Shown in pieces: positions 3,255 to 64,000 of a DNA stretch of 64,000 nucleotides. The notes beneath the pieces were generated by a model. It was not told the DNA's origin, did no database searches, and saw only the letters and a program-made list of their open reading frames with translations. The stretch comes from Candidatus Endomicrobiellum incisitermitis (GTDB taxonomy: Bacteria; Elusimicrobiota; Endomicrobiia; Endomicrobiales; Endomicrobiaceae). Made by a program: the position numbers and the translations under genes. The DNA lies in NCBI GenBank assembly GCA_031275795.1, contig JAISOG010000005.1, forward strand, positions 69 to 64,068, given 5' to 3'. How positions within the stretch are numbered: the first letter of the stretch is position 1; every line of letters starts with the position of its first letter.

Positions 3255-4799
3255 ATGTGGCCAGTTATTATTGCGTTACTTTCCTTACTCTTAGGCTATG
3301 TTTTACGTTTAATATATGCCAAAGTTAATGCAAGGTCTGCAGAACAGATTTCAGAAAGAATTATAAAAGAAGCTAAAATGATAGCTGAAACAAAAACTAA
3401 AGAGGCTCTTTTAGAAGCTAAAGTTATTGTTGATAAGGAAAGGAAAGACTTTGAGCAAGAGATAAAGGAAAGGAAACAATCTATCCAAAATATGGAAAAT
3501 AGGCTTGGCCAGCGTGAGGAAAACTTATATAAAAAAATTGACTCAGTTGAAAAAAGAGAGAAAGAGTTGCTCGGTAAAGAAAAAGATATTTTTTCAAAAG
3601 AACAATTTTTAACTTCAAAGTTTGCAGAAATAGAGAAAATAAAAGAAGAAGAAAAAGCACTTTTAGAAAAAATTTCCGGGTTTACAAGAGAAGAAGCCAA
3701 AAAGTTGCTTATGAGTAAGATGGAACAAGAAGCCAAGCAAGATGCTGCCATTTTGGCACAAAGGCTGGAACAAGAAGTTAGAGAAAATGCGGATAAAAAG
3801 TCTAAAGAAATTTTATCTGTGGCAATACAGCGTGTAGCTGCAGACCATGCTGCAGATATTACAACGTCTACAATACAAATTCCCAACGATGAGATAAAAG
3901 GAAGAGTTATTGGTAGAGAAGGGAGAAATATTAGAGCTTTTGAGCAAGCTACAGGTGTAGATTTAATAGTAGACGACACTCCAGAAGCTATAACAGTTTC
4001 TGCTTTTGATGGAGTTAGAAGGCAAATAGCAAAAATAGCTTTAGAAAGGCTTATCGCAGATGGTAGAATTCACCCTGCAAGAATAGAAGAAGTTGTTGAT
4101 AAAGTCAGGAGAGAAATGGACCAACACTTAAAAGAGGTTGGAGAACAAGCTGCAATTGACGGTGGTGTTCCGGGCTTAAATATAGAAATTGTTAAACTTC
4201 TTGGCAAACTACAATACAGAACGTCTTATGGGCAAAACCAGCTTCAACATACTTTAGAAGTTACATGGCTTGCAGGTGCTATAGCTGGAGAGTTAGGTCT
4301 TGATGTAATGTTTTGCAAAAAGGCTGCTCTTCTTCACGATTTAGGCAAAGCTGTAGATCATGAAGTTGAAGGTACTCATCACCAAATTTCAGCAGATATA
4401 GCTAAAAAATATGGCGAATCGTCAAAAATGATAAACGCAATTTTATCTCATCATGAAGGTATAGAAGCTCCTGCAAGTCCTGAAGCTTTTGTAATAGCTG
4501 CAGCTGATGCAATTTCTGCTGCAAGACCAGGTGCAAGAAGGGAATCTATAGCACATTATTTAAAGCGTCTTGAAAAACTTGAAAAAGTTGCAAAGGAGTT
4601 TAAGGGAGTTTCTTTGGCTTATGCCATACAGGCCGGAAGAGAAGTTAGAATACTTGTAGAACCAGAAAAAGTAAACGATACTCAAGCTCAAGTGTTAGCT
4701 CGCGATATAGCTAAAAAAGTTGAGCAAGAATTAGAATATCCAGGACAAATTAAAATAACAGTAATAAGAGAAATACGCGCACAAGATATAGCCAAATAA
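3255..4799 (+). CDS. rny: Ribonuclease Y
   Basis: N-terminal TM helix, long coiled coil, KH block [17 protein letters not shown], and HD domain [10 protein letters not shown]. Confidence 0.95.
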
Positions 4800-50803: not shown

Positions 50804-51163
50804 GTGAAGAACGTAAAAGAAGTGTTAAGTTTAAAAATTGTAAACTTTAAAGAAATTAGGTGTTTATTAAACAAAAATATAGCAGCGCTTGTGATTGTTT
50901 TTTGTATGGGAGTAAATGGAATTGTTCCAAAAGAAGTTAATATTAACAAAAACAGTTTAGTTTTAGTGGTTGATTTAGCCAGAGACACTGCAGTTAGAGA
51001 TATTTTTAAACGTTGTAACGAGAGTCTAATCATAATATCTAGTAAAATATCAAAAGAATTACAAATTTTTTTATTTCAAAGCTCTACTAATAGTAGTTAC
51101 ATGTCAGCGCAAAAAAGCACGCAGAACAATAAAATAAATGAATATTCAGGTAGGTTTTTATGA
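50804..51163 (+). CDS. Small hypothetical membrane protein, translationally coupled to the giant ORF
   Basis: GTG start 6 nt after AAAGGAG. One hydrophobic segment, IAALVIVFCMGVNGIV. Its TGA overlaps the giant ORF ATG (ATGA). Confidence 0.55.
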   Translation: MKNVKEVLSLKIVNFKEIRCLLNKNIAALVIVFCMGVNGIVPKEVNINKNSLVLVVDLARDTAVRDIFKRCNESLIIISSKISKELQIFLFQSSTNSSYMSAQKSTQNNKINEYSGRFL

Positions 51164-51288
51164 ACTTTAAAAGTAAGAAGTTGGACTACTTTAAAGAACA
51201 TTGGAAAAGACAGATATTTTTAAAAGGTGTATGTATGATTGTTAGTGCATGCATAATTTTAAACATAATAAATCTGCCAGCATATGCA
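51160..51288 (+). other. Giant ORF: N-terminal signal peptide / signal anchor
   Basis: MNFKSKKLDYFKEHWKRQIFLKGVCMIVSACIILNIINLPAYA: a basic n-region, a hydrophobic core, and A-x-A. Confidence 0.6.
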
Positions 51289-54200
51289 AATACACAAGAA
51301 GATCTTAGGAAGAAAGCTTTTAGCAGGGAAAACAAACAACAAGATGTTCTATATCAAAAAGACACGAGCTTTAATAGTGTTAGTGTGATGAACAGTTTGG
51401 AAGCAAATATAAAGATTGATAAAAAGACAGAAAATATATTTGTAGGCAAAGAGCTAAAAGGATTTTTGTCAAAAGAAAAAGATGGGCAAGGGCGTAGAAA
51501 AGTAATGGTGCATAAGGGAGAAAGTTTTGAGGAAGATGAAGTTTTAACAGCCATGGTAGACAATAAGCTTAAAGGCAGAAAGTCTAGTAGTGGTGTTGAA
51601 ACAAGACAGATATCACAAGATCAAAGATCACAAGATCAAAGATCGCAAGAGCAATCGCTAAGTGTAAAAGAAGGAGAATCCACACGACAACAAAAAGACA
51701 AAAGTGCCCAAGAGCAAGAAAGCAAAGAAGAAGTAAAAGAAGAAACTAGACAGTCTCAAAGCCCAAAAGAAGAAAGAGTAGCAAAACAACAAGGAGCTAA
51801 AGAAGGAGTAGAAAAAGAAGCCATAGAGGAAGCAAGAAGGGAACAAGAGCAAAGATCTAAGCAGGAAAGTCAAGGAGAGCAAGAAGAAAGGGAAACTGAA
51901 AGAGAAGGATCTATCAACGCACAAGAGCAGGTTTTACAAGGACAAAGAGATATAGATGTTGAAAAGGCTAGTTATACATCAAAAAGAGTGCAAGAACTGG
52001 CAGAATCTTTAGAAAAAGAAGAAAAAGATAGAGATAAAGTTATTGAAGAAATAGCAGAACAAACAGGGTTAAGTAAAGAGCAAGTAGAAGAAGAACTCTC
52101 AAAGCTAGATGAAGCGCAAAGAAAAGGAGTAATAGCAGCATTAGCTAAATTGTTTGGGCAAGGGAAAGATATAGTCTACTGCGTGGCAGAGGTTTTAGGG
52201 ACAGTGCTAAATGAAACAAATAAAGGGTTGTTAGGATTTGCAGCTATTTTAGCAGAGGCAATAGCAGGGATATTTGTAAAAAATAACCAAGATTTAATAA
52301 GTGGCAAATCTGAGCAGCTAATGTTAAGTGCGCAAGCAATACAAACAGTACTGAGAAAGTATGGTAAAGAGTATGTTGGGATAGATACAAATATTGATGA
52401 TATAATAGCAGGGCTTAATGTAGGAGAATCAGCAATAGTGCATGTTGGGACAAACCATTTTATAACAATAACAAAAAATGAAGATGGGACGTTTACAAAG
52501 ACAGACATAAACAAGTCTCAAGAAACATTAACAGCAAAGGAGCTTAAGTCAGCTCTGGAAAGGGAGTACGGTTTAAAGGAAGGCCAAACAACAACAGTAC
52601 TTGTAAAAGATGATAATGAGAAGTTTAAAGGGATAAAACGGGTAGATACACTGGGCGAAGTTTTAGGAGCAGAGCGAGAAGAATATGTTGGCATAGAAAT
52701 AAATATTAACCATATAATTGAGGGGCTTAATGTAGGGGAATCAGTAATAGTGTACGTTGTCAGAGACCGTTGTGTAACAATAACAAAGAATGAAGATGGA
52801 ACGTTTACAAAGACAGACAACGTAAACAATACACCAGAAACATTAACAGCACAGGAGCTTAAGCGTGTTATGGTAGAGCAGTACGACTTAAAGGAAGAAC
52901 AAATAACAAGAGTAGTTGTAAGAGCAGATAATGAGAAGTTTAAAAGGATTGTATATGATCTGAGCGAAGCTATAGGAGCACAGCGTCAATGGGATAAGAG
53001 CCAATTTGAAGGGAAATCGCAAGAAGAGTATTATAGGCAATATGGGGAAGAGTCGTACGAAAAGCTTATGATACAGATGTACGGGACAACAAGCTTAAGT
53101 CCAGAACAGTCAAGGGAGTTTGCAGCATTTTATGAAAAATTTTTAGAAGCAGCTATTATAGATATAGATAAAACAATGTCAGATGAAAAGGCATCAGAAG
53201 AATCCAAAGAAGTTGCAAAAGCATTAAAAACGCAGGCAGCAAAAGAGCTAGCAATTATTGAAGGGACGTTGGAAGTGTTAAGAGAACATGTAGGAGTAGT
53301 TAGTGGACAAGTAGGGCAAGTATTGCTTATACAAGAGAGGGCATATCCAAACGAAAGCCAAGGTATTGCAGAAGGAGAGTATTATCAAGTTATTACAATT
53401 TATGCAGACGATCTAAAAGAACAACATAGTATTGTAGGATCAGACGGAAAAAGTGTGTCTATAGAGAGTTATCGAATAAGTAGAGGGTGGTCAATAAGTA
53501 CAAGAGAAGGGGTAAGAGTAACGCGCAGTGATGGCAGCACATATCAAGTTTTTGGTATAGGAGGCAAGTTTGAAGGGATGGAAGTTGGATTTGAATATAT
53601 AGTTGCATATAATGCAAACGGAACATTTTATATGGACGAGCAAGCAAATATATATTTGCTAAATGATACAGATAGAGTTTATCAAGCAAGAGAAGAAAGA
53701 GGATCAAGGCCACCAACAAGTGGGATGTATAAAGGAGCAGCGCCAGAAAGAGAAAATTGGACGCATGGGAAAATAATAGAGACAGAGTCAGGATATATGA
53801 TATATGGAGCAGGAAGCAAAATTACTGTAAGAAAGACAAGCAGAGGATGGGAAGCAGACGCCATAGGAATAGGGACAGAGGCTATGAGAGGATCAGTGTT
53901 AAGAATATCAGCAAATGATCCAAACGGAGTAGCAGCGACGATATTCTTAGATATTAAAGAAGGGTTTATGGTGTATGCAGGGAACTATTGGGTACCTTCA
54001 GATGGATTTATCTGGCAATATGATGAAAGTGTAACTGCAGAGCAAATAGAACAATTCATAAAAAATACGATAAGTACGCAACTAGGATCCAATGCAGAGG
54101 GAATAGAAGAGATAGAGCTAATATATGGAGAAGCAGTAGAAGCAGCAAAAGCAAAAGCAAAAGAAAAAGCAGAAGAAGAAATAGAAGAAGAAAGAAAAAA

Positions 54201-57200
54201 ATATGCATCAGAGATCCCCCCAGCGCAATATAAGGCTGCACATAAAAAAGAGATAGAAGAAAAAGCACAAGAGTACTATGAGGATATATATGAACAAGAG
54301 GTAGCACAAACAAAAGAGGACTTTAAAAACAAAAAAATGCTAGGAGCGCCGTTTTCTACAGAGGCAATTTTTAAGTCTATGGGGATAAGTGCCAAAATCC
54401 ATACAAAAGCAGGGTTTACATATGATGGCACAAAATCTGATGGAGACATATATAAGCTTACAATAGAATCTGCTACAGTACTAGAAATAAAAGAGCAAGA
54501 TGGCGAGTTAGTTACGGTTGCAACAGAAGACATTAGAGTGAAAGCGGTTATAAGTGAAGGAGGTTGGGAGCTTGATAGTGGAGGCACTACACTGACTGAT
54601 AGTATTAAACAAGGGCAAGTGTTTTCATTTGCCACGGTGCTAAATAACGCAGGAAGGCAAATAGTAAATACAAGAGAAATTGAAATAATTACAGGATATG
54701 AAATTAGTGGGCATGATGAGAAGGGTAATAATTATTACGATTATAGTAAACCAAAATATTCAAAAATGGATCCTGGAACTTTTAAAGTAGGAGGAAATAG
54801 CGATGGGAAGTACATTTTAATAAATAATCTTTATATAAGTATTAGCAAGGGGAATTGGGAGGTGATGCAAGAGCAGTCTGGTAGTCAGTACGACAAAACA
54901 GAGGAAAATTGTGCGTATTGGCATGAAGGAGCCCAGATAACAATTTCTAAAAGAGGTAATACGTTTGATATTAGTATAAGTAAAGGGGACCTTACAGTAA
55001 AAAATCTAACAGTTACGTTATATCACAAGATGAACGATAGTAGTGGTGGAGGGGATGATAGTGATGATAGCTATGAAGGACCTAGGATAGAGGGAGCCTA
55101 TATAACAGATTATAAAGAGCTTTACAATAATATGTACTCATATAAAATACAAACAGGAACATTTAAAGGAGTTTCAGGAGAGCAAGGAACGCAAAACAGT
55201 TTAGGAAACTTTATGTTTGTTCCAGGCTCAGACTTCAAAAAAGGTTCGATTATACAAGCAGATGCGACAAGGGCAAAATATGATTCTAAGATAAAGAAGG
55301 ATGGGAGTATAGATGCCTACGGTGCAAAATGGTATGAAAAGCTCAGGGACGGGATAGTAGGATTCTTTAGTATATTAGCATTTTCTTTAATGACTATTTT
55401 TACGTTAGGAGCAATGATATGGGCAAAAGAAATGAAAGGGATGGGCTGGGCAAAAGAATGGGCAGCCATAACGTATGGGTATTGGAATCATGTGGAAGCA
55501 GACGGGAGTAATAAAGAAGCAGTACAAAGAGGGATGGATTTAGGAATAGCAGGACTTGCAGCAGTAGCAATATTAGTAGTAGCGGCAATATCTATAGCAG
55601 GTTCTATTTTTACAGGAGGAGCAAGTATTATAGGAGCAATAGGAGCAGTGGTGGCCCTAGCAGGAGCAGTAGCAAGTTCAGTAAGTGCAATAAATTTGAC
55701 AAATTCAGCAATACAAGCGTTTAGAGCAGGCAAAGGAGGGCAAGGAGCGTTAATGTTGTTTTTTGCATTGCTGACAGTAGTACTTGCATGCGTAGGAGCA
55801 GGGCAGATGGGCAGTACAATAGCGTCTGGGTTGGCAACATTAGGGAAACAATTTTTTATAAAGATGGCAGTAGGAGCAGTAATAGGAGCAGCAGCAGGAG
55901 CAGGAATAGCAGCAGCATCTTATGGTATAAGATATGCTATAGATAAATCAAAAGGTAGAGCTGAGGATTTTGACTGGGCAGAGTTTGGGAAAGAAGTAGG
56001 AATAGGAGCAATAACAGGAGCGTTTGCAGGAGCAGCAGCAGGAGCACAAGTGGCAACTGCAGTGGCAAAAAGTGTAGCAAAAGGAGTTGCTCAGGAGGTA
56101 GCAAAAGGAGTAGGAGAAGGAGTGGCAAAAGCGGTAGGAGAGGAAGTAGCAGAAGATGTTTCAAAAGAGATAACAAAGCAAGTGTCTAAAGAGGTAGGAG
56201 AAGAACTAGCCGGAAGCATAGCTGGAAAAGTTTCAAAAGATGTATTATCACAAATAACGGGAAGTTTAACAAAAGGAGTAAGTGTTGAAGTAGGTAAAGA
56301 AGTAGCAAAAAACGTTGCAAAAGAGGTAGGAGAAGGAGTGGCAGAAGAAGTAGCAAAAGATGTTAGTAAGGAAGTAGCAAAAAATGTTGTAGATGATTTA
56401 GCAACAAATGTAGCAAAAAGTGTAGAAGCGCAAATTGTGAAGGAGTTATCAGGTGAAGTTTCAAAAGAAGTAGGAGAAAAAATAGCAAAAAGTGTAGCAG
56501 AAAAAGTGGCAAAAAGCATATCAAGAAGTATCGCAGAGAAGGTAGGTGAGGAAGTTCCTGTGGGTGTTGGAGAAATAGCAAAAGAGCTGATTTTGGGAGG
56601 GACAAGTTTTAAAAGACAGGCAGGGCAAACCACTTTACAATTTGTAGGTACAGTTACAAAGTCAGTGATAACAGTAGTTAGCAGGGTTGGGATGCAAGCA
56701 TTAAATGGATATATGACGTACATGTCGGCAAAGAGTTTTGTTGATTGTATGGAAAAGGGAGATGTATTGGGCGCAGCCAAAGCATTGTACACACTGGTTT
56801 CCATAAACATAATAATGCCTGTTATGTCAGGCCATTCAGCAATTAAAGAGGACGGGACTTTAAAAGCATCAGATCTAGCAAAAGAAGGTGCAGGAGATTT
56901 GACAAGTACAGCAAAAAATACTGAGGTTGTTACTAAAGGTATAACAATCCAAGGGATGTCAATAGGTTGGAAAGTAGGATCAGTAGCTATAACGACAGTA
57001 GTAGGGGCTGGTGTAGGAGTGGGAATATCTGTTATAATAGATTTAGTAAGTGGTAAAAAGATAAAAGCTAAAGATCTCATAATAGGAGGAGGAGTTGGTG
57101 CGACTATTGGGTTCGGGTTTGGCGCACTTGCAACGAAAGCAGATTGGACTATGCTGGGCAACTCTGTTAAGACATCTCTAGCGAAAACCTTTGCGCCTTT

Positions 57201-60200
57201 TGCAGGGAGGACTGCCAACCTTGTGAGGGGCGCAGATGGTGATATTGTAGTTCAAGAGTTGAGTGAATTTAGTGGATCAACAATGGTTAGGTCCTGGGTT
57301 GGTCTTGTAGGAGGAGGAGCAATAGGAGTAGGTATAGGGGCAGGGATATGGGCAGTTAAAGGCCATAAGAAAGAAGATATGGCCAGGTATCTTATAGTAG
57401 GAGGAGTAGGAGGAAGTGTGGTAGGAGCAGGATTTGCAAATGCGTGGTCATCAGGAGGATATAAAGGAGCGTGGGCCAATTTTAAAGCAAATCCAAAAGC
57501 TGTTTTTATGGAAGCAAAAGGATATCTGCAAGAGTCTCTAGTTAAAAGTGTTACGATGGTGCAAGAGATAAATATGTTCAACACGTATATGGCCTATAGT
57601 ACAGGAATACTAAACCAAATATATAATAAAATTACAGGGGAGTCATTAGCAAATACAGATATTGTTAAATTTATTAATAAAGTAACAGGGATGAGTTTGT
57701 TCAAGTCGCAAGCAGATATAGAAGAAGATACAGAATTTGAAAAGAGGAAGAAGAAAGCACAAGAAAAAGGAGAAGAGTTTAAAGAAGAGGGAGTAGTTTA
57801 CAAAGCGGAGTTTGGACAGGAAGAAGCTAATGCGGTAATAGAGCAAAATTGGGGAAGTCTTACAAGTCCAACGATGTATGCAAGTAATGTAGTGGGAGGA
57901 TTTTTAAAGCCAGTGTTAGGGCCAGCGCTGCAACATTCGCCAATTTTAGGGAGTGTGATGAATGTTATGGAAAGTGCAGGAAGCGTGTCTATAATGCAAA
58001 AGCATAAAATAGTAAGTATGTTTTACAACATGGGAGTAAAAATAAGATTATTAAACATTATTTCAAAGCAAGTGTTTGACGATCCGAATGATCCAGAGGA
58101 TGATCAGATAGCAGAAGTTCTGGGAGGATTTGCATTTATGCAAATGTTTGAGACAATGGCACCTCAAACAATGCCAGCTCAAACCCAGGCAGAAGCAGAG
58201 AAATTTTTAACATCTGGGCAAGAAATTAGTAAGATGGTAGATGGTAACCAAATAAAAGTAGCCCTTGGTGAAGAAGTTTATAATTCAGCGACGTTGCTGA
58301 AGAAGGCAAGTAGTAAAGAAAAGTTTGAAGGTAACTTGAAAACAGTTTGTAGTAATTTAGGGTTAAGTTATGAAGTAGTTAGTCAGGAAGTAGGATTAGG
58401 CAAAAACTATAACCAAATAGTTAGCAGTCTTGTTATAGAGTACGTGTTAAAGGGAGTAAGTGAAAGAGGAGCATTGCCAGAGCAGATTCAAAAGGTTAGA
58501 AGTGAGTTAAATACAATAGTAGAAACAAGCCCAATAATGAAGCAAGGAGCAGGGTTATCTAGCTTTGATATAATTAATTCAATTTCATGTAAACTAAATT
58601 ATTTATATGCAAGTGCAAAAATACTAGAATTAAATGTAGAAGGAATAAGAGTAGAGAGTATTGCTAGTGGGAGTCTTAGTAAGGGAGAATATAAAAAAAT
58701 ACTTCAAGCTCAAGACGCAAAAGAAACAGGTTCAGGAGTAGTTTTACTTATGAACTACCTATCAGGAATAAGTTCAGTAAATAGTTTGCCAATAAATGAG
58801 CTTATAGGAGCAGTAAGTGAATATAATAATAAATTATTTGAGTTAAAGGAAGCAACAAAAGCAACACTAGCAGCACTTAAATTATTAAATCTAAGTGAAG
58901 ATCAAATTAATAGAATAAGTGAAATAGTGTTAAAAGAAGGATCAGTTAGTGCTGAGAATAAGTTAACAGAAGGAGCTAGCCAAGAAATAAGTAAGGTTTT
59001 AGGAAAAGCAGGGACAGAAGTTGTTGTAAAGCTAATAGTTGGAAATCTTGAAAGAAATATCAATATAGGGAGTATAAGAAACGCATTTGAGAATGTATAT
59101 TCTCAAAGAACAAAGATTACAATAGGGTATATGATGAGTATGCTTGCTACATCAGTTGTATCAAAAGAGGATCCTTTGACAAAAGAGTTGATGAGATCAT
59201 TAGAAAAACAATTATTTAGGGCAGATACATATGTTGTGTATACTACTTTTAGAGATAGTCCTGCGCTCAAAGAGGTAGGTGAAATAGAAAGTCTAAGAAA
59301 TATTATTCAACAAGCAAAAGCTGATCTTACATCAACACTTAAGTCATTAAGTGCGTTAAAGTTATCTGATATGCAAATTAATAAAATAAATGAAATAGTG
59401 TTAAAAGAAGGAGCAGTTGGTTCTGACAATAAGTTAACAAGGGAAGCTCAAGAGGGAATACAAGAAGTTGTTGGAAGTAAAGTTGTAACTAATCTTGTAG
59501 TTAGAAATATTGAAGAACTTAGAAGTATAGAAGGGACAAAACTTAGTGCAGAACAGAAAGGGCAGTTAGCATTGCTAGAAGCAATATATATGCCTCAAGA
59601 AATATCTTTAAATACTGCAATTAATAATCTAGTCAAGGAAGTTGCAAGTGGAAAATTGAGTTATGAAGAGTTTAACTTAGTAATAGGGGCATCAGACATT
59701 TTATATTCTAGAGTTACAAGTGTAGAACAAAGGAAGAAACTTGCTGATTATAGGAAGGAGATCACAGTAGCAGCAGTTAATATGACAAAAGAAGTTATCA
59801 AAGAGACAGCTAAATTACAAAAAGAAGGACAAATAACCAAAGGAGAAGCAAAGGGATTTTCAGAAAGTATTAGAAATGCTTTTAATGAAGTAGGCAAAGT
59901 AGGCAATATTAGCAGTTTGATGGGAGCAAATGCAAATGCTAGACGTATGTTAAGCTCTATTAGGGAAAGAGATATAGTGCAAGTAGTAGATGCACAGGGG
60001 AAGTTTTTATCATTTGATACTTCTGCTGGGAAAAATGTGATAGAAGTAAATAGGATAGAAAGTACAGCAAAAGGGATGAAGATAAACCTTACTGTTGACG
60101 GGAAAAATATAGGGGATGTAGTATTGAAAGGGAATCTTGAAGCGCTATCTAAAAACGAAAAGTTAGCACAAGCTATTGTAGAGAAATATCCTAATATGCT

Positions 60201-63200
60201 GGCCACAGATATTGCATTAAATAGAGCTTTAAGTGAGGCTATAAAACCGAATTTAGAAGTTCAGGCCAACAAAATAATAGAAATAGCAAGTAAAGCAGAG
60301 TCATTAGATGCCGATAAAAAAGTGACAAAAGAAGCCAGAATAGAGATAGAAGAAGTTGTAGGGAGTAAAGATATAGCAAACAAGATTATTAATAGTATAG
60401 AAGATGGAAATATTGGAGGCGTAAAAGATGTAGTGTATAGTTCAGTTGAGAAGATAATTGAAGTTTTAAATATGCAAGAAGCGTTTAGTAAAGAAGATGT
60501 TAATAAGTTGACAGAAGTATCCAAGAAGACAATACAAGAGCTAGTGAGAAACAAAGAAGTGGCAAATAATATTATAAGAAGTATAGAAGAAGTTAAGTTT
60601 TCAGATTTAAAAAAGGCACTACAAGAAGCATTATCAGGGCCAGAAGCATTAGTTTTAGGGGAAGGGTCATTTAGGATAGATGGTGAGGGCAAACAAATAG
60701 AAAACAAGGGATATATTTTATCGTCACAAGCAAAGAGTGCAATATTTAATTTATTAGGAGCAACAAATGCGACAAGAGTAATAGATAGTATAGATGCTCA
60801 GTTGAATACAGAAAAGATAGTAAACGACATAAAAACATTTAAGACTGATGCAAGCCAATTAATAAAGTTGTGTTCAGCAAATGTAAACCCTAGGGCAATA
60901 TCGATGTTATTTAGTCATTTAGAAGCAGATATCTCACCGCCAGACGGTAAAATAAAAATGTCTTTAGCAGATTTAGCTATATTGTGTGAGCAAACGCAAA
61001 ATGCAATAGCGCCACAACTAAAAGCGATGATAAATAAGATGATAAATGATAAGATGATAGATGATGAAAAGGAAGTAGAAAAAGCCGTTGACCAACTTTC
61101 TAAGTATTTAAAAGATTCAAGTTTACCTGAGAGAGAGACAATTTTTGAGCAAGTAAAAGAGAAAGTTAAATATAGTAATAATGTTGAAAATTCACAACTG
61201 TACGAAATAGTTAACCAGCATTTGGATGTTAGTAAGATTGTAAGTATTGCTATAGAAGAAATAGAGTTAATGAAAGGAGAAGGAAAATCTGAAGAAGAAA
61301 TAGTTGACAATGCAAATTTAAAGTTTGTTTTTGAAAATTCAGGATACCTTAGTCCGGATGCTTTATTACCAAGATTAAAACTATTAAGAGAGGAAAGTGC
61401 AGGTAAAACAAGATTAGAAATGATACAAGAGGAATTTTATGGAAAAGGAGGATATGTAGAGCAAGCAAAAGGATTTATAGAAACAAATACAATAGAGGTA
61501 GAAGGGAAAAAGAAGTTAAAGGAAGGGACAATAGATAGTTTAAGGGCGAAAGTGATAGCAATGGATTTGGAAGGGAAAGGGACAGAGGCAGTAAATTTGT
61601 TGAGGATAACATTAAATGAGTGTATGAGGCAAGCAGTAGGATTTGGGATAAGAGGATCACAGTCAGAACTAACAACGACATTACAAAATGATATAAATGC
61701 AGCATTGGGGATGGGAGGAGGAAAGACAGTATCCTTAGCATTAGATGCGGCGACGCAAAGGGTGTTGATGGGAAGTGCATTAAATTTAGAGATTTTGGTG
61801 GGCAATAGTGATTTAGAGAATTATGTAGGAGGGAGCTCACAAGCGCGAAAGTTTTTTGAGTTTGTAGGGATGAAAGCAGTAAGTATTAACGACTTTAAAC
61901 CAGAAGGAGGGCAAACAAACATAGGAAAGCTAAAAGAGGCATATCAAGACCCGAATGTAGTAGTGATAATGGACCCGACAATGAGGGGACATATGATGAA
62001 CGAAGCAGTAAGCAGAGGAGGAGAATCTGGGAGGGAACTAAGAGAAGTGTTGGAAAGTGTAAACAGGGTTACAGTAGACGAGGTACATTTGTGGGCGCTG
62101 ACGCGGACAGCAGCAGTAATAGGGGGAGATAACAAGCCACCAGATAAAGGGATAATAAAGAAGGCAGTAAAAATCGGAGATCTTATTAATGCTGAAAAGA
62201 TATATAAGCAGATAATAAAACCAGGAGCGATAGAGAAAACAATTACAATAGAAAAGAAAGAAGTTCTGGTAAAGCGTTTTAACAAAGAAGCAGATCTAAT
62301 AGAAGCGAAAGTGGAAGGGGAATATATAGCAATAATAGGAGAACAAACAGCGAGTATAGAAATAAGGATGTCAAAAGGAATAAGGGATGTATTGATAAAT
62401 AAGATAGGAAGCGCGCCAAAAGGATATACACCCGCAGGGATGTTATACAGTGTGATAAAGGGATTGTTTACAAGTTCAGAGAATGGGGGGATGGCAATAG
62501 GAGAGGACGGGAAAGTAAAACCAGTGGGAGCCACAGGAGTGCAGGAAAACATGGTTATTAATGATATATATTCACAGTTAGGGTTTGCATTAAAGAAAGG
62601 AATAGAGAAGAGAGTGTTTGATATAAGGGGATATATGTCAAAGAGTACGCAAATGAGTAATACAAGCATGCAGACGTCCCTAGCAGCGATATATAGTGGA
62701 GCAAGTGCGCGTATGGTAGGGATATCAGGGACAGTATCAGGGTTGGAGCAGCTAATAATAAACAGGACAGGATCAGGGAAGATATATAATATAACGGGAG
62801 AAAGAGTAGACCCGTCGATGTTTAATAGTGTTATGGAGATAGGGACTGCTTTATCAAAAGAAGTTATAAAAGAAAATCTTAAATCTTTAAGTGAATTGAA
62901 TTTGAATGAAAGTGTAATTAATGACATAGCTGAAATTGTTGCAAAGAAAGGAGCATTAGATGGTAATAACAAATTAACTCAAGAAGCTCAGGAAGAAATA
63001 AAAGAAATAATAGAAAAAGCTAAAGCTATTAAAAATCTTGAGAGGAATAAGGACAGTATAGAGGACAGTATAAGTATAGAGGACAGAATAAAGATTATTA
63101 GTGGAAGTATAGGGGATGGGTTAAGAGCAAAAATAACAAACGTTTTAATAAAAGCAATGCAAGATAAAACATTGTCACCAGACCCAGCATTAAATAATGC

Positions 63201-64000
63201 GCTGCTATTAGGGAAAACACAGGGGACAATAGAAAATTTTAGAAGTGCGGTTAAAAAAGCAATAGAAAATGTAGGAGGGATAGAAGCACTAGATGGGAAA
63301 GTAGAAATATTTGAGTTTACAGACAAGCAAGGGAAATGGACAGGAATAAATGAGAAGAGAGAAGTAGAAGTTAGTGGAGATTTAGGAAATAATATGAAAA
63401 GTATCACAGATGTGGCAAAGAATAAGAATATAAGACGAATAATAATAGCAAATGAGATGGGAGCAACAGGAGTAGATTATCAAGGGAATTATTTAAATAT
63501 AATAGCAGATGCACATTTGATGAGTAATACAGACTTAGCGCAAGCATTAAAGAGGACAGCGCGACCGAACAATTCTTTTAGTAAAGAAGGAGGATTGCAA
63601 AGGTGGACAACAGAAAGGGTAATAATGTACGACAAAGTAAAAGTGCAAAGTGAGTTGGATGCATTTAAAAATAATGGAGTATTTGTAGAGTATGCAAAGA
63701 AGTTGTGGGAAGGAGCAAAAGCAGGTGGTAATATGGAAGATGCAAAAAGTGTCAAATGGTTAGAAGTAATGGAGAAGGGGAATTTTGACATTTCAAATGC
63801 AGAAGTTATAGAGGGTTTGTATAAGTTAAGTGGAGGATATAAAGAAGGGGATAAAATAGATACAAAAAGCCCGGAAGTTATAGATATAGCGATGAAAGAA
63901 GCGATAACATTTATATCAAAGATCCAGGATTTGAGATCAGTAGACGGGTCAATAAGATTTACAATAAATGATTCAATAAGAGACAGGATGGTATTGAGTG
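51160..64000 (+). CDS. Giant multidomain membrane protein, 3'-incomplete (more than 4,280 codons, no stop before the window end)
   Basis: ATG 51160 with GGTAGG 5 nt upstream; an in-frame TAG at 51151-51153 bounds it upstream. I translated every 60-nt line in this frame to 64000 and found no stop. It is absent from the ORF track because it has no stop in the window. Confidence 0.9.
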   Translation, partial: MNFKSKKLDYFKEHWKRQIFLKGVCMIVSACIILNIINLPAYANTQEDLRKKAFSRENKQQDVLYQKDTSFNSVSVMNSLEANIKIDKKTENIFVGKELKGFLSKEKDGQGRRKVMVHKGESFEEDEVLTAMVDNKLKGRKSSSGVETRQISQDQRSQDQRSQEQSLSVKEGESTRQQKDKSAQEQESKEEVKEETRQSQSPKEERVAKQQGAKEGVEKEAIEEARREQEQRSKQESQGEQEERETEREGSINAQEQVLQGQRDIDVEKASYTSKRVQELAESLEKEEKDRDKVIEEIAEQTGLSKEQVEEELSKLDEAQRKGVIAALAKLFGQGKDIVYCVAEVLGTVLNETNKGLLGFAAILAEAIAGIFVKNNQDLISGKSEQLMLSAQAIQTVLRKYGKEYVGIDTNIDDIIAGLNVGESAIVHVGTNHFITITKNEDGTFTKTDINKSQETLTAKELKSALEREYGLKEGQTTTVLVKDDNEKFKGIKRVDTLGEVLGAEREEYVGIEININHIIEGLNVGESVIVYVVRDRCVTITKNEDGTFTKTDNVNNTPETLTAQELKRVMVEQYDLKEEQITRVVVRADNEKFKRIVYDLSEAIGAQRQWDKSQFEGKSQEEYYRQYGEESYEKLMIQMYGTTSLSPEQSREFAAFYEKFLEAAIIDIDKTMSDEKASEESKEVAKALKTQAAKELAIIEGTLEVLREHVGVVSGQVGQVLLIQERAYPNESQGIAEGEYYQVITIYADDLKEQHSIVGSDGKSVSIESYRISRGWSISTREGVRVTRSDGSTYQVFGIGGKFEGMEVGFEYIVAYNANGTFYMDEQANIYLLNDTDRVYQAREERGSRPPTSGMYKGAAPERENWTHGKIIETESGYMIYGAGSKITVRKTSRGWEADAIGIGTEAMRGSVLRISANDPNGVAATIFLDIKEGFMVYAGNYWVPSDGFIWQYDESVTAEQIEQFIKNTISTQLGSNAEGIEEIELIYGEAVEAAKAKAKEKAEEEIEEERKKYASEIPPAQYKAAHKKEIEEKAQEYYEDIYEQEVAQTKEDFKNKKMLGAPFSTEAIFKSMGISAKIHTKAGFTYDGTKSDGDIYKLTIESATVLEIKEQDGELVTVATEDIRVKAVISEGGWELDSGGTTLTDSIKQGQVFSFATVLNNAGRQIVNTREIEIITGYEISGHDEKGNNYYDYSKPKYSKMDPGTFKVGGNSDGKYILINNLYISISKGNWEVMQEQSGSQYDKTEENCAYWHEGAQITISKRGNTFDISISKGDLTVKNLTVTLYHKMNDSSGGGDDSDDSYEGPRIEGAYITDYKELYNNMYSYKIQTGTFKGVSGEQGTQNSLGNFMFVPGSDFKKGSIIQADATRAKYDSKIKKDGSIDAYGAKWYEKLRDGIVGFFSILAFSLMTIFTLGAMIWAKEMKGMGWAKEWAAITYGYWNHVEADGSNKEAVQRGMDLGIAGLAAVAILVVAAISIAGSIFTGGASIIGAIGAVVALAGAVASSVSAINLTNSAIQAFRAGKGGQGALMLFFALLTVVLACVGAGQMGSTIASGLATLGKQFFIKMAVGAVIGAAAGAGIAAASYGIRYAIDKSKGRAEDFDWAEFGKEVGIGAITGAFAGAAAGAQVATAVAKSVAKGVAQEVAKGVGEGVAKAVGEEVAEDVSKEITKQVSKEVGEELAGSIAGKVSKDVLSQITGSLTKGVSVEVGKEVAKNVAKEVGEGVAEEVAKDVSKEVAKNVVDDLATNVAKSVEAQIVKELSGEVSKEVGEKIAKSVAEKVAKSISRSIAEKVGEEVPVGVGEIAKELILGGTSFKRQAGQTTLQFVGTVTKSVITVVSRVGMQALNGYMTYMSAKSFVDCMEKGDVLGAAKALYTLVSINIIMPVMSGHSAIKEDGTLKASDLAKEGAGDLTSTAKNTEVVTKGITIQGMSIGWKVGSVAITTVVGAGVGVGISVIIDLVSGKKIKAKDLIIGGGVGATIGFGFGALATKADWTMLGNSVKTSLAKTFAPFAGRTANLVRGADGDIVVQELSEFSGSTMVRSWVGLVGGGAIGVGIGAGIWAVKGHKKEDMARYLIVGGVGGSVVGAGFANAWSSGGYKGAWANFKANPKAVFMEAKGYLQESLVKSVTMVQEINMFNTYMAYSTGILNQIYNKITGESLANTDIVKFINKVTGMSLFKSQADIEEDTEFEKRKKKAQEKGEEFKEEGVVYKAEFGQEEANAVIEQNWGSLTSPTMYASNVVGGFLKPVLGPALQHSPILGSVMNVMESAGSVSIMQKHKIVSMFYNMGVKIRLLNIISKQVFDDPNDPEDDQIAEVLGGFAFMQMFETMAPQTMPAQTQAEAEKFLTSGQEISKMVDGNQIKVALGEEVYNSATLLKKASSKEKFEGNLKTVCSNLGLSYEVVSQEVGLGKNYNQIVSSLVIEYVLKGVSERGALPEQIQKVRSELNTIVETSPIMKQGAGLSSFDIINSISCKLNYLYASAKILELNVEGIRVESIASGSLSKGEYKKILQAQDAKETGSGVVLLMNYLSGISSVNSLPINELIGAVSEYNNKLFELKEATKATLAALKLLNLSEDQINRISEIVLKEGSVSAENKLTEGASQEISKVLGKAGTEVVVKLIVGNLERNINIGSIRNAFENVYSQRTKITIGYMMSMLATSVVSKEDPLTKELMRSLEKQLFRADTYVVYTTFRDSPALKEVGEIESLRNIIQQAKADLTSTLKSLSALKLSDMQINKINEIVLKEGAVGSDNKLTREAQEGIQEVVGSKVVTNLVVRNIEELRSIEGTKLSAEQKGQLALLEAIYMPQEISLNTAINNLVKEVASGKLSYEEFNLVIGASDILYSRVTSVEQRKKLADYRKEITVAAVNMTKEVIKETAKLQKEGQITKGEAKGFSESIRNAFNEVGKVGNISSLMGANANARRMLSSIRERDIVQVVDAQGKFLSFDTSAGKNVIEVNRIESTAKGMKINLTVDGKNIGDVVLKGNLEALSKNEKLAQAIVEKYPNMLATDIALNRALSEAIKPNLEVQANKIIEIASKAESLDADKKVTKEARIEIEEVVGSKDIANKIINSIEDGNIGGVKDVVYSSVEKIIEVLNMQEAFSKEDVNKLTEVSKKTIQELVRNKEVANNIIRSIEEVKFSDLKKALQEALSGPEALVLGEGSFRIDGEGKQIENKGYILSSQAKSAIFNLLGATNATRVIDSIDAQLNTEKIVNDIKTFKTDASQLIKLCSANVNPRAISMLFSHLEADISPPDGKIKMSLADLAILCEQTQNAIAPQLKAMINKMINDKMIDDEKEVEKAVDQLSKYLKDSSLPERETIFEQVKEKVKYSNNVENSQLYEIVNQHLDVSKIVSIAIEEIELMKGEGKSEEEIVDNANLKFVFENSGYLSPDALLPRLKLLREESAGKTRLEMIQEEFYGKGGYVEQAKGFIETNTIEVEGKKKLKEGTIDSLRAKVIAMDLEGKGTEAVNLLRITLNECMRQAVGFGIRGSQSELTTTLQNDINAALGMGGGKTVSLALDAATQRVLMGSALNLEILVGNSDLENYVGGSSQARKFFEFVGMKAVSINDFKPEGGQTNIGKLKEAYQDPNVVVIMDPTMRGHMMNEAVSRGGESGRELREVLESVNRVTVDEVHLWALTRTAAVIGGDNKPPDKGIIKKAVKIGDLINAEKIYKQIIKPGAIEKTITIEKKEVLVKRFNKEADLIEAKVEGEYIAIIGEQTASIEIRMSKGIRDVLINKIGSAPKGYTPAGMLYSVIKGLFTSSENGGMAIGEDGKVKPVGATGVQENMVINDIYSQLGFALKKGIEKRVFDIRGYMSKSTQMSNTSMQTSLAAIYSGASARMVGISGTVSGLEQLIINRTGSGKIYNITGERVDPSMFNSVMEIGTALSKEVIKENLKSLSELNLNESVINDIAEIVAKKGALDGNNKLTQEAQEEIKEIIEKAKAIKNLERNKDSIEDSISIEDRIKIISGSIGDGLRAKITNVLIKAMQDKTLSPDPALNNALLLGKTQGTIENFRSAVKKAIENVGGIEALDGKVEIFEFTDKQGKWTGINEKREVEVSGDLGNNMKSITDVAKNKNIRRIIIANEMGATGVDYQGNYLNIIADAHLMSNTDLAQALKRTARPNNSFSKEGGLQRWTTERVIMYDKVKVQSELDAFKNNGVFVEYAKKLWEGAKAGGNMEDAKSVKWLEVMEKGNFDISNAEVIEGLYKLSGGYKEGDKIDTKSPEVIDIAMKEAITFISKIQDLRSVDGSIRFTINDSIRDRMVLS
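52141..52515 (+). other. Giant ORF: putative papain-fold (C39-like) cysteine peptidase module
   Basis: FGQGKDIVYCVAEVLG (Gln then Cys341, nt 52180-52182) ... LRKYGKEYVGI ... ESAIVHVGTNHFITITKNEDGTFTKTD (His433 at nt 52456-52458, downstream Asp). This parallels the C39 order Q..C ... H(F/Y)VV ... D. Confidence 0.5.
52369..52992 (+). repeat. Giant ORF: tandem 2 x 312-nt (104-aa) duplication
   Basis: Unit 1 is EYVGIDTNIDDIIAGLNVGESAIVHVGTNHFITITKNEDGTFTKTD...DNEKFKGI...LGAERE. Unit 2 is EYVGIEININHIIEGLNVGESVIVYVVRDRCVTITKNEDGTFTKTD...DNEKFKRI...IGAQRQ. Long stretches are identical at the nucleotide level. Confidence 0.85.
55351..56040 (+). other. Giant ORF: first cluster of Gly/Ala-rich hydrophobic (TM-like) segments
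   Basis: GIVGFFSILAFSLMTIFTLGAMIW; LGIAGLAAVAILVVAAISIAGSIF; ASIIGAIGAVVALAGAVASSV; ALMLFFALLTVVLACVGAG; MAVGAVIGAAAGAGIAAA; VGIGAITGAFAGAAAGA. Confidence 0.7.
56041..56568 (+). repeat. Giant ORF: 44 consecutive 4-residue repeats [small]-x-x-[V/I/L]
   Basis: GAQV ATAV AKSV AKGV AQEV AKGV GEGV AKAV GEEV AEDV SKEI TKQV ... AEKV GEEV PVGV. Strict 12-nt periodicity with no indel over 528 nt. Confidence 0.9.
56941..57450 (+). other. Giant ORF: second cluster of glycine-zipper hydrophobic segments
   Basis: VGSVAITTVVGAGVGVGISVIIDLV; LIIGGGVGATIGFGFGALA; WVGLVGGGAIGVGIGAGIWAV; YLIVGGVGGSVVGAGFANAW. Confidence 0.7.
58876..59004 (+). repeat. Giant ORF: helical module, copy A
   Basis: LKLLNLSEDQINRISEIVLKEGSVSAENKLTEGASQEISKVLG. 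Confidence 0.8.
59356..59478 (+). repeat. Giant ORF: helical module, copy B
   Basis: LKLSDMQINKINEIVLKEGAVGSDNKLTREAQEGIQEVVGS. Confidence 0.8.
61561..63600 (+). other. Giant ORF: SecA-like DEAD-motor ATPase region (NBD1 / insert / NBD2)
   Basis: Walker A GMGGGKT (61708-61728), Walker B DEVH (62077-62088), GISGTVSG, ANEMGATGVDY (63448-63480) and QALKRTARP (63541-63567). These are collinear with the E. coli SecA motif blocks. Confidence 0.7.
62896..63018 (+). repeat. Giant ORF: helical module, copy C (inside the ATPase region)
   Basis: LNLNESVINDIAEIVAKKGALDGNNKLTQEAQEEIKEIIEK. Confidence 0.8.

Follow-up and report, generated by a model that had tools for sequence, protein, structure and literature searches.

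A period of four residues is that of the α-helical i/i + 4 ridge and of the small-xxx-small (glycine-zipper) motif, and the known glycine-zipper and GxxxG motifs comprise 2–4 units within the bilayer. Tetrapeptide repeats are described in LSA-3 of Plasmodium falciparum, whose [V/I]xxx units (VEES, VAEN, VAEK, IASS, and others) are rich in Glu, Ala, and Ser, are described as α-helices, and change in number between isolates, from 22 to 150, by whole tetrapeptides alone (PMC2774867), and in the TLP-4 glycofibril, each unit of which has a conserved Pro (dihydroxyproline) next to Ser/Thr (PMC11725842). Giant multi-pass proteins with divergent SecA_DEAD domains have been described in the Omnitrophota “Archaeovorins” and in relatives in other phyla (bioRxiv 10.1101/2023.11.21.568195). 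Here we describe a 64,000-nt stretch of DNA (the window) from contig JAISOG010000005.1 of Candidatus Endomicrobiellum incisitermitis (assembly GCA_031275795.1), in which a giant open reading frame (ORF) carries an array of 44 tetrads of the form [small]-[K/E]-[E/x]-[V/I/L].

We tentatively read this array as a kinked α-helical hairpin stalk of adjustable length, expanded in one lineage within the conserved multi-pass membrane module of a giant protein of a termite-gut symbiont. The reading draws on modeled secondary structure together with the periodicity of the array and the pattern of length change among homologues.

Sequence and Periodicity of the Tetrad Array

The array (56041..56568, + strand; residues 1628–1803) is 176 residues long and in frame with the giant ORF. 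It starts GAQV ATAV AKSV AKGV and ends GEEV PVGV, and the run cannot be extended N- or C-terminally. The fourth residue of each tetrad is Val in 33 units, Ile in 7, and Leu in 4, making 44 of 44 consecutive tetrads without an insertion or deletion; at the V/I/L frequency of 0.23 found elsewhere in the giant protein, the probability of such a run by chance is ~8 × 10⁻²⁹. Just five V/I/L residues in the array lie off position 4. Position 1 is small in 39 of the 44 units (A20, G8, S8, T3, and 5 others), position 2 is mostly Lys or Glu (K20, E10, G4, and others), and position 3 is more mixed (E14, S7, G6, Q4, D4, K4, and others). This recount agrees exactly with the first-pass annotation, made from the sequence without database searches, in the number and type of tetrads, the intact 12-nt register, and the composition of positions 1–3.

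Fourier analysis of hydropathy bears out the regularity that the annotation had pointed to, with a sharp power peak of 626 at a period of exactly 4.0, compared with 244 at 4.05 and 120 at 2.0. This single peak at 4.00, with nothing at 3.5–3.75, led us to reject a heptad (3.5), 11/3 (3.67), or 15/4 (3.75) coiled coil. The annotation was therefore right that the period is not that of a heptad, but not that it lacks a known pattern, as it does fit the i/i + 4 ridge and the small-xxx-small motif. The array is unusual in length, not in kind.

The 176 residues include A24, K24, and E25, a composition rich in helix formers that supports the hairpin reading, together with 37 Val (21%), 18 Gly (10%), and 1 Pro. 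Charged residues make up 31% of the array, 30 of them acidic, for a net charge of −5, and none of its 19-residue windows exceeds a Kyte–Doolittle value of 1.5. β structure was rejected on composition and on structure prediction. Residues 148–159 of the array score 33.7 bits against the Pfam family Antimicrobial_2 (frog antimicrobial peptides), for which the curated threshold is 22. Members of that family are amphipathic helices, and the match of this 12-residue piece is taken as a short amphipathic-helix look-alike, not homology.

Divergence and Selection on the Array

At the DNA level, the 12-nt units have a mean pairwise identity of 54%, neighboring units are no closer to each other than distant ones, and 4 of 946 unit pairs are identical. 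The position-4 codons are likewise mixed (GTA 18, GTT 9, GTG 6, ATA 5, TTA 3, and others), and Tandem Repeats Finder (TRF) detects degenerate 12/24/36-nt periodicity alone, with 64–79% matches.

Substitution rates were estimated from a codon alignment between the window and a homologous gene carried by a contig of Candidatus Endomicrobiellum cubanum (L001). The array has a dS of 1.07, a dN of 0.26, and a dN/dS ratio (ω) of 0.24, and the rest of the module has a dS of 1.27, a dN of 0.19, and an ω of 0.15. Tetrad position 4 (dS = 1.37, dN = 0.22, ω = 0.16; 17 synonymous changes in 41 compared codons) has the lowest ω among the three estimable positions, ω at position 3 not being estimable because synonymous sites are saturated. 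The periodicity of the array is held by purifying selection across near-saturated synonymous divergence, which excludes a recent expansion and makes a neutral relic less likely. With the period kept in all close homologues, these results sustain the proposals of the annotation that the unequal codons preclude a recent expansion at the DNA level and that the periodicity is selected.

Predicted Structure of the Array

Two AlphaFold2 (AF2) runs were made, on the 725-residue module and on a 219-residue piece (residues 1607–1825), each with an alignment of three close sequences. In the 725-residue run (mean predicted local distance difference test score, pLDDT, of 40), the array is the top-scoring part and is helical, with pLDDT values of 54–70. 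The 219-residue run (mean pLDDT 56; predicted template modeling score, pTM, 0.50) places helices at residues 1624–1676, 1678–1720, 1726–1760, and 1766–1795, and the flanks of the central turn reach 73–83 in 10-residue block means. Both models thus predict the array to be helical and not disordered, in line with the helix proposed in the annotation.

The two runs agree on three breaks, all at Gly-rich tetrads. The first predicted break is at residues ~1677–1680 (56188..56199, + strand), where SKEV gives way to GEEL AGSI; the predicted apex, or turn, is at GEGV AEEV, close to the array midpoint (residues ~1720–1727; 56317..56340, + strand); and the second break is at VKEL SGEV (residues ~1761–1768; 56440..56463, + strand). 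The outer breaks mirror each other, break 1 falling ~44 residues before the apex and break 2 ~40 residues after it. Two length changes seen among homologues fall at these sites, a 16-aa insertion after residue 1676 (break 1) and a 12-aa deletion of residues 1723–1734 (the apex).

A phmmer search of the Protein Data Bank (PDB) with the array sequence gave weak, chance-level matches, to FliG, to a chain named THR2, which we take to be a designed protein, and to IpgB2, all with E ≥ 0.03.

Homologues and Linker Length

The full-length homologues returned by word-based searches numbered only two (5510 and 5054 aa); they come from Endomicrobium metagenome-assembled genomes (MAGs) and are 62–64% identical to the window protein over the module. 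An exhaustive HMMER search added a 76%-identical fragment (P0006, labeled JGI/IMG alone) and four remoter proteins (P0008, P0009, P0010, and P0013) that have both hydrophobic clusters of the module in common with the window protein, at 25–50% identity. By their NCBI MAG labels, two of these four are from Endomicrobium sp., one is from a Lachnospiraceae bacterium, and one is from a Lactobacillus sp., the latter two being partial; their similar locus tags suggest a single MAG project.

The period-4 signal is retained throughout the close set, in the full-length homologues P0004 and P0005 and in the fragment P0006. The larger internal indels in the array comprise whole tetrads, namely the insertion (4 tetrads) and the deletion (3 tetrads) noted above, and P0006 lacks roughly 11 tetrads, as counted by eye, in a deletion that starts at predicted break 1. 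The alignment shows a further 1-residue difference at the C-terminal boundary of the array. The remoter proteins have the array site between a helix that keeps the GAxxGxFAGAxxG motif of the pre-array helix and a helix with the pattern G..SF....L.FVG...ALN.Y.TY. The site holds ~10 residues in P0010, ~45 in P0008 and P0009 (of AKTA AETA type), and ~130 in P0013, where the segment is rich in A/G/E/V and retains an approximate period of 4; linkers of the close set are 140–190 aa long. Given this variable length at the site (~10 to ~190), the array is no constant component of the module. As judged from these sequences, it is an insert of variable, dispensable length that was expanded in one lineage. 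The conservation of register, which the annotation had put forward as a check, is therefore partial: the period is kept, but one homologue (P0005) has shifted phase, and the remoter homologues have only ~10–130 residues at the site.

In a second termite-gut metagenome (run X3), a relative is represented inside the array only by short fragments (56126–56345), most of them <90% alike, with two alternative 118-nt contigs over 56170–56287. These fragments suggest strain variants or repeat-driven assembly breaks.

A Proposed Kinked Hairpin and Its Alternatives

The geometry of the array was examined through its Eisenberg hydrophobic moment. At 100° per residue it drops from 0.49 in windows of 11 residues through 0.37 (18 residues) to 0.08 (36 residues), whereas at 90° per residue it stays at 0.55, and an angular scan shows none sustained elsewhere. 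On a normal α-helix, this decay means that the Val ridge and the adjacent small-residue ridge wind once around the axis every nine tetrads, such that two helices could keep a straight seam only with kinks or strong right-handed supercoiling.

In the hairpin reading, the helix would start at the membrane as the glycine zipper GAIT GAFA GAAA, a marginally hydrophobic helix just before the array (residues 1607–1627; 55978..56040, + strand), the G-x-x-x-G register of which passes unbroken into the array (GAQV ATAV AKSV ...). It would go on in this unchanged 4-residue register as [small]-K-E-V tetrads, with V/I/L forming one i/i + 4 ridge, the small residues A/G/S the next, and Lys and Glu the other two. 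The chain would fold back at the Gly-rich tetrads near the midpoint and kink once in each arm, in mirrored positions, to give a kinked antiparallel hairpin with arms of ~85–90 residues. The hairpin would bring the chain back to the side of the membrane from which it started, where the next conserved helices begin (residues 1804–1895; 56569..56844, + strand; ..LGGTSF..QAGQTTLQFVG...ALNGYMTYMSAKSF...LYTLVSINIIMP). These post-array helices are moderately hydrophobic, are found in all module homologues, and form the C-terminal anchor of the linker. Both ends of the array are tied to neighboring membrane-associated helices, which fits a hairpin. Slippage of the degenerate 12-nt repeat would add or remove whole tetrads and leave the packing undisturbed; as all units are equivalent, such gains and losses would cost no packing, which would explain the variable length. 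We infer the hairpin geometry, the role as a stalk or spacer, and which side of the membrane the array lies on. A positive-inside count made by eye slightly favors the cytoplasm, but the periplasm fits equally well should the two marginal flanking helices both cross the membrane. The array has the look of a spacer that can be adjusted, and not that of a part for catalysis or recognition.

Several observations weigh against the hairpin. The AF2 alignments are three close sequences deep and the resulting confidence is moderate at best, and the hairpin was read from secondary structure and the pLDDT pattern, not from coordinates or predicted aligned error. Comparison of the AF2 model with the PDB by Foldseek gave no match below E = 0.1 and no TM-score >0.29. 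Val is β-branched and, with Gly at 18 of 176 residues, lowers helix propensity; an antiparallel pair would also set Glu ridge against Glu ridge. A period of 4.0 on a 3.6-residue helix winds the apolar ridge once per 36 residues, and for two straight helices to remain zipped along 85 residues, strong right-handed supercoiling or kinks would be needed. Finally, a 1-residue deletion after tetrad 6 in P0005 shifts the phase, and the remaining ~40 units are periodic in the new phase, indicating that a perfectly continuous seam is not required.

The length variation, in particular, could be explained without any defined structure if the array were a low-complexity flexible linker that arose by 12-nt slippage expansion and whose periodicity is a historical residue. 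On this account the core module does not need the array, given a site that ranges from ~10 to ~190 residues across the family; the restriction of the larger indels to whole tetrads is what slippage would yield; and the still-detectable 12/24/36-nt periodicity, the tolerated phase shift in P0005, and the higher ω of the array (0.24 vs 0.15 in the flanks) are all accommodated. We consider such a linker unlikely, however, because the DNA units are 54% identical with no neighbor effect, because position 4 is still V/I/L, with an ω of 0.16, at a dS (~1.07) near saturation, and because AF2 returns helices with pLDDT values up to ~83, not the very low values usual for disorder; a neutral relic would not have kept 44 of 44 hydrophobic positions. 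At the opposite extreme, a rigid spacer of ~26 nm in the form of a stable single α-helix (SAH), a ruler held by Glu–Lys salt bridges, is consistent with a predicted helix that is Ala-rich and 31% charged with Lys and Glu well mixed. SAH domains have dense i to i + 4 (and i + 3) opposite-charge Glu/Lys/Arg pairs and few hydrophobic or Gly residues; in the array, 16 opposite-charge i + 4 pairs stand against 19 same-charge ones amid 37 Val and 18 Gly, and membership in this class was rejected. A ruler of this type is highly improbable, since the pairs lack the dense E-to-K pattern, since Val at 21% and Gly at 10% are out of place, since a straight 26-nm rod cannot satisfy two ends tied to neighboring membrane helices, and since AF2 breaks the helix at three places.

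Two other explanations were considered. In one, which the annotation had offered as a membrane-surface-binding element, an amphipathic helix lies on the membrane beside the two transmembrane clusters with its V/A ridge in the interface; the position of the array directly between membrane helices, its local amphipathicity (a moment of 0.49 over 11 residues), the piece that passes the frog antimicrobial peptide threshold (33.7 vs 22 bits), and the occurrence of AKEV-type arrays after transmembrane helices in SseC-like translocators all point in this direction. A long flat membrane-surface helix is opposed by the α-helical moment, which drops to 0.37 in 18-residue and 0.08 in 36-residue stretches, by the net charge of −5, and by the choice of Val, and this part of the annotation was not upheld. 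A long flat face would require underwinding to 4.0 residues per turn, anionic bacterial membranes would disfavor the 30 acidic residues, the hydrophobic position is filled by Val and not by Leu, Phe, or Trp, and the element is absent altogether from paralogues whose linker is 10 residues long, making this explanation distinctly unlikely. In the other, several copies of the giant protein or the two arms pack in a tight right-handed supercoil along the small-xxx-small/V ridge, as an oligomerization zipper of new geometry that would extend right-handed GxxxG-type packing into a soluble segment. Here a small residue fills position 1 in 39 of the 44 units, beside V/I/L and continuing the register of the glycine zipper before it, and the moment of 0.55 is sustained solely at 90° per residue, both as expected, and many unrelated proteins retain long strict period-4 arrays; by our own estimates, a 4.0 period on a 3.63-residue helix needs ~9° of compensation per residue and, at a helix separation of 6–7 Å, a crossing angle near 40°, like that of known GxxxG dimers. 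The needed curvature, again by our own estimate, would nevertheless be roughly fourfold that of a canonical coiled coil, and to our knowledge no solved structure contains such a continuous supercoil. AF2 splits the helix into four pieces with no supercoil, and P0005 tolerates a phase shift; we regard this zipper as quite improbable.

Should the kinked hairpin prove correct, the array would offer a clear example from nature of a helical element with a period of exactly 4.0, its 44 of 44 hydrophobic positions held by selection and not by recent expansion, and its length changing by whole units at predicted turns. It would then be a useful model for the packing of i/i + 4-ridge helices outside membranes, a geometry that coiled-coil theory leaves uncovered.

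Host Protein and Gene Neighborhood

Within the window, the giant ORF (51160..63999, + strand) covers >4280 codons and has no stop before the window ends; the protein is recorded in the database at 4292 aa, truncated by the end of the 64,105-bp contig. The protein begins with a signal-like hydrophobic segment and a long N-terminal region, followed by the multi-pass membrane module and a long C-terminal region, with at least 10 hydrophobic segments in a hydropathy scan. As the annotation had described, the array is flanked by two clusters of Gly/Ala-rich hydrophobic helices. Cluster 1 (residues 1395–1588; 55342..55923, + strand) has approximately five Gly/Ala-rich predicted membrane helices in a Kyte–Doolittle scan and is kept in the four remoter homologues (P0008, P0009, P0010, and P0013). 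Cluster 2 (residues 1938–2100; 56971..57459, + strand) has approximately four Gly-rich predicted membrane helices with Lys-rich loops between them. A third Gly/Ala-rich hydrophobic cluster is present near the C-terminus of P0004 and P0005 (near residue 4880 of P0004). It would lie past the end of the contig, which indicates that the window protein is without its last ~800–1200 residues.

Pfam gave nothing meaningful on the whole giant protein, and neither phmmer with its C-terminal 800 residues nor a profile built from three whole-protein sequences had any match in the PDB. Walker-like GMGGGKT and DEVH motifs are visible by eye at 61597–63999 (residues ~3480–4280). No SecA DEAD or C39 domain was found in the giant protein by Pfam, by phmmer, or by the 3-sequence profile against the PDB. 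The two motifs fit a SecA-like ATPase, and such a domain would be beyond sequence-level detection with the methods used.

Immediately upstream is a small ORF (50804..51163, + strand) of 119 aa with one hydrophobic segment, the stop codon of which overlaps the start of the giant ORF; no Pfam family was found for it. A longer homologue of 220 aa is located directly upstream of the giant gene in L001 (1030–1692), and the N-terminal ~95 residues of the two are clearly similar. The presence of this homologue beside the giant gene indicates a conserved gene pair. The neighboring genes are ordinary chromosomal ones (EF-Tu, nusA, infB, truB, ribF, ftsW, and an ABC ATPase). An antisense open frame of 375 codons runs across the array (56091..57218, − strand); it is S/T/P/F/A-rich, with a repetitive “SFATS,” and was rejected as a gene, being a repetitive S/T/P/F/A shadow of the array.

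Other Period-4 Arrays

The exhaustive HMMER search returned 200 proteins at E ≤ 1 × 10⁻³, mostly matching the array alone. Among the 150 best matches, 97 carry at least 20 x-x-x-[VILMF] tetrads (at least 85% hydrophobic at one phase), and some have 70–113 strict period-4 units, P0024 reaching 113. These counts, like the published LSA-3, provide precedents for a period of 4.0, which the annotation had found to fit neither heptad coiled coils nor β strands. The compositions of the matching arrays vary widely (GAQV/WDQV, SQPV, AEPV TKSL, RDEV, and others). Many of the matches have unrelated domains, among them DUF6745, which occurs in 22 of 83 scanned matches beside arrays of GAQV/WDQV/RDQV type. 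These varied compositions and unrelated domains indicate that long period-4 arrays are a recurrent, probably convergent kind of repeat, probably with a large structurally uncharacterized class among them. The repeat type of the array is uncommon and has precedents.

In the literature on four-residue periodicity, translocator glycine zippers, and DUF6745, we found no structural treatment of such arrays. Our survey thus places long period-4 arrays in many unrelated proteins, several of them beside membrane helices, and none was found with a solved structure. It is conceivable, though a long shot, that the long x-x-x-[V/I/L] arrays, including the AKEV-type arrays of SseC-like proteins, make up a distinct unsolved class, a right-handed “tetrad coiled coil” zipper in which a β-branched ridge lies beside a small-residue ridge and any unit may pair with any other, to give a length-adjustable, self-associating stalk for membrane proteins.

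Comparison with Known Systems

The resemblance to SseC-like proteins, which are of the type III secretion translocator kind, is one of repeat. Four of these from environmental and termite-gut metagenomes (P0018, P0030, P0046, and P0084) have, like the array, 60–200 residues of (A/S/G)(K/E)xV tetrads of AKEV type, which come straight after Gly/Ala-rich hydrophobic helices; P0018 is from a Puniceicoccales MAG, and its locus tags resemble those of the module homologues. The array alone matches positions 150–237 of the Pfam SseC family (PF04888) with E = 2 × 10⁻⁴ and 21.5 bits, against a curated cut-off of 30.2; the array with its flanks scores 18.8 bits, and the whole protein gives no match. A profile–profile comparison by hhalign covers 111 columns, all within the tetrads and none in the flanks. 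Membership in the SseC family was rejected, the match being below threshold and confined to the repeats. The protein that hosts the array differs from the SseC-family translocators in architecture and is 10 times their size. A similar local layout, hydrophobic helices and then AKDV/EKNV tetrads, is seen at residues ~100–400 of P0121 (4814 aa), a sequence that looks actinobacterial and has, by eye, a WXG100-like N-terminus.

The giant size and numerous transmembrane helices of the Archaeovorin-type proteins are shared by the host protein, which is several thousand residues long. The host differs in being Endomicrobia-type and ~5,000 aa in length compared with >30,000, and the tetrad array is not described for that group (bioRxiv 10.1101/2023.11.21.568195). 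A TLP-4-type glycofibril core was rejected, as the array has 1 Pro in 176 residues. The 11/3 repeats of α-synuclein, apolipoproteins, and perilipins are similar in composition (K, E, G, V, A, and T/S), in length, and in their location near membranes; their period of 3.67, however, keeps one flat apolar face, whereas the moment of the array, at a period of 4.0, cancels over 36 residues.

With LSA-3, the array has in common its uninterrupted tetrapeptides that begin or end with V/I, with acidic or small residues elsewhere, and its change in length by whole units, an assignment to a descriptive class and not to a homology family. LSA-3 differs as an antigen of a eukaryotic parasite; it is strongly acidic, and its units are near-identical, recently expanded, and not membrane-flanked. 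Its structure is also unsolved, and homology with the array is not expected. In its packing pattern, the array resembles the glycine zippers and GxxxG motifs, with a period of 4, a small residue beside a β-branched one, and a small residue at i, i + 4, i + 8, and onward at position 1, in register with the true zipper that it continues (GAIT GAFA GAAA GAQV). It is not a hydrophobic membrane-spanning helix, positions 2 and 3 being mostly Lys/Glu, and unlike those motifs it extends to 44 units. The Lys and Glu at the other two positions indicate that this segment is water-soluble, a continuation of the glycine-zipper register outside the hydrophobic helix in which it begins.

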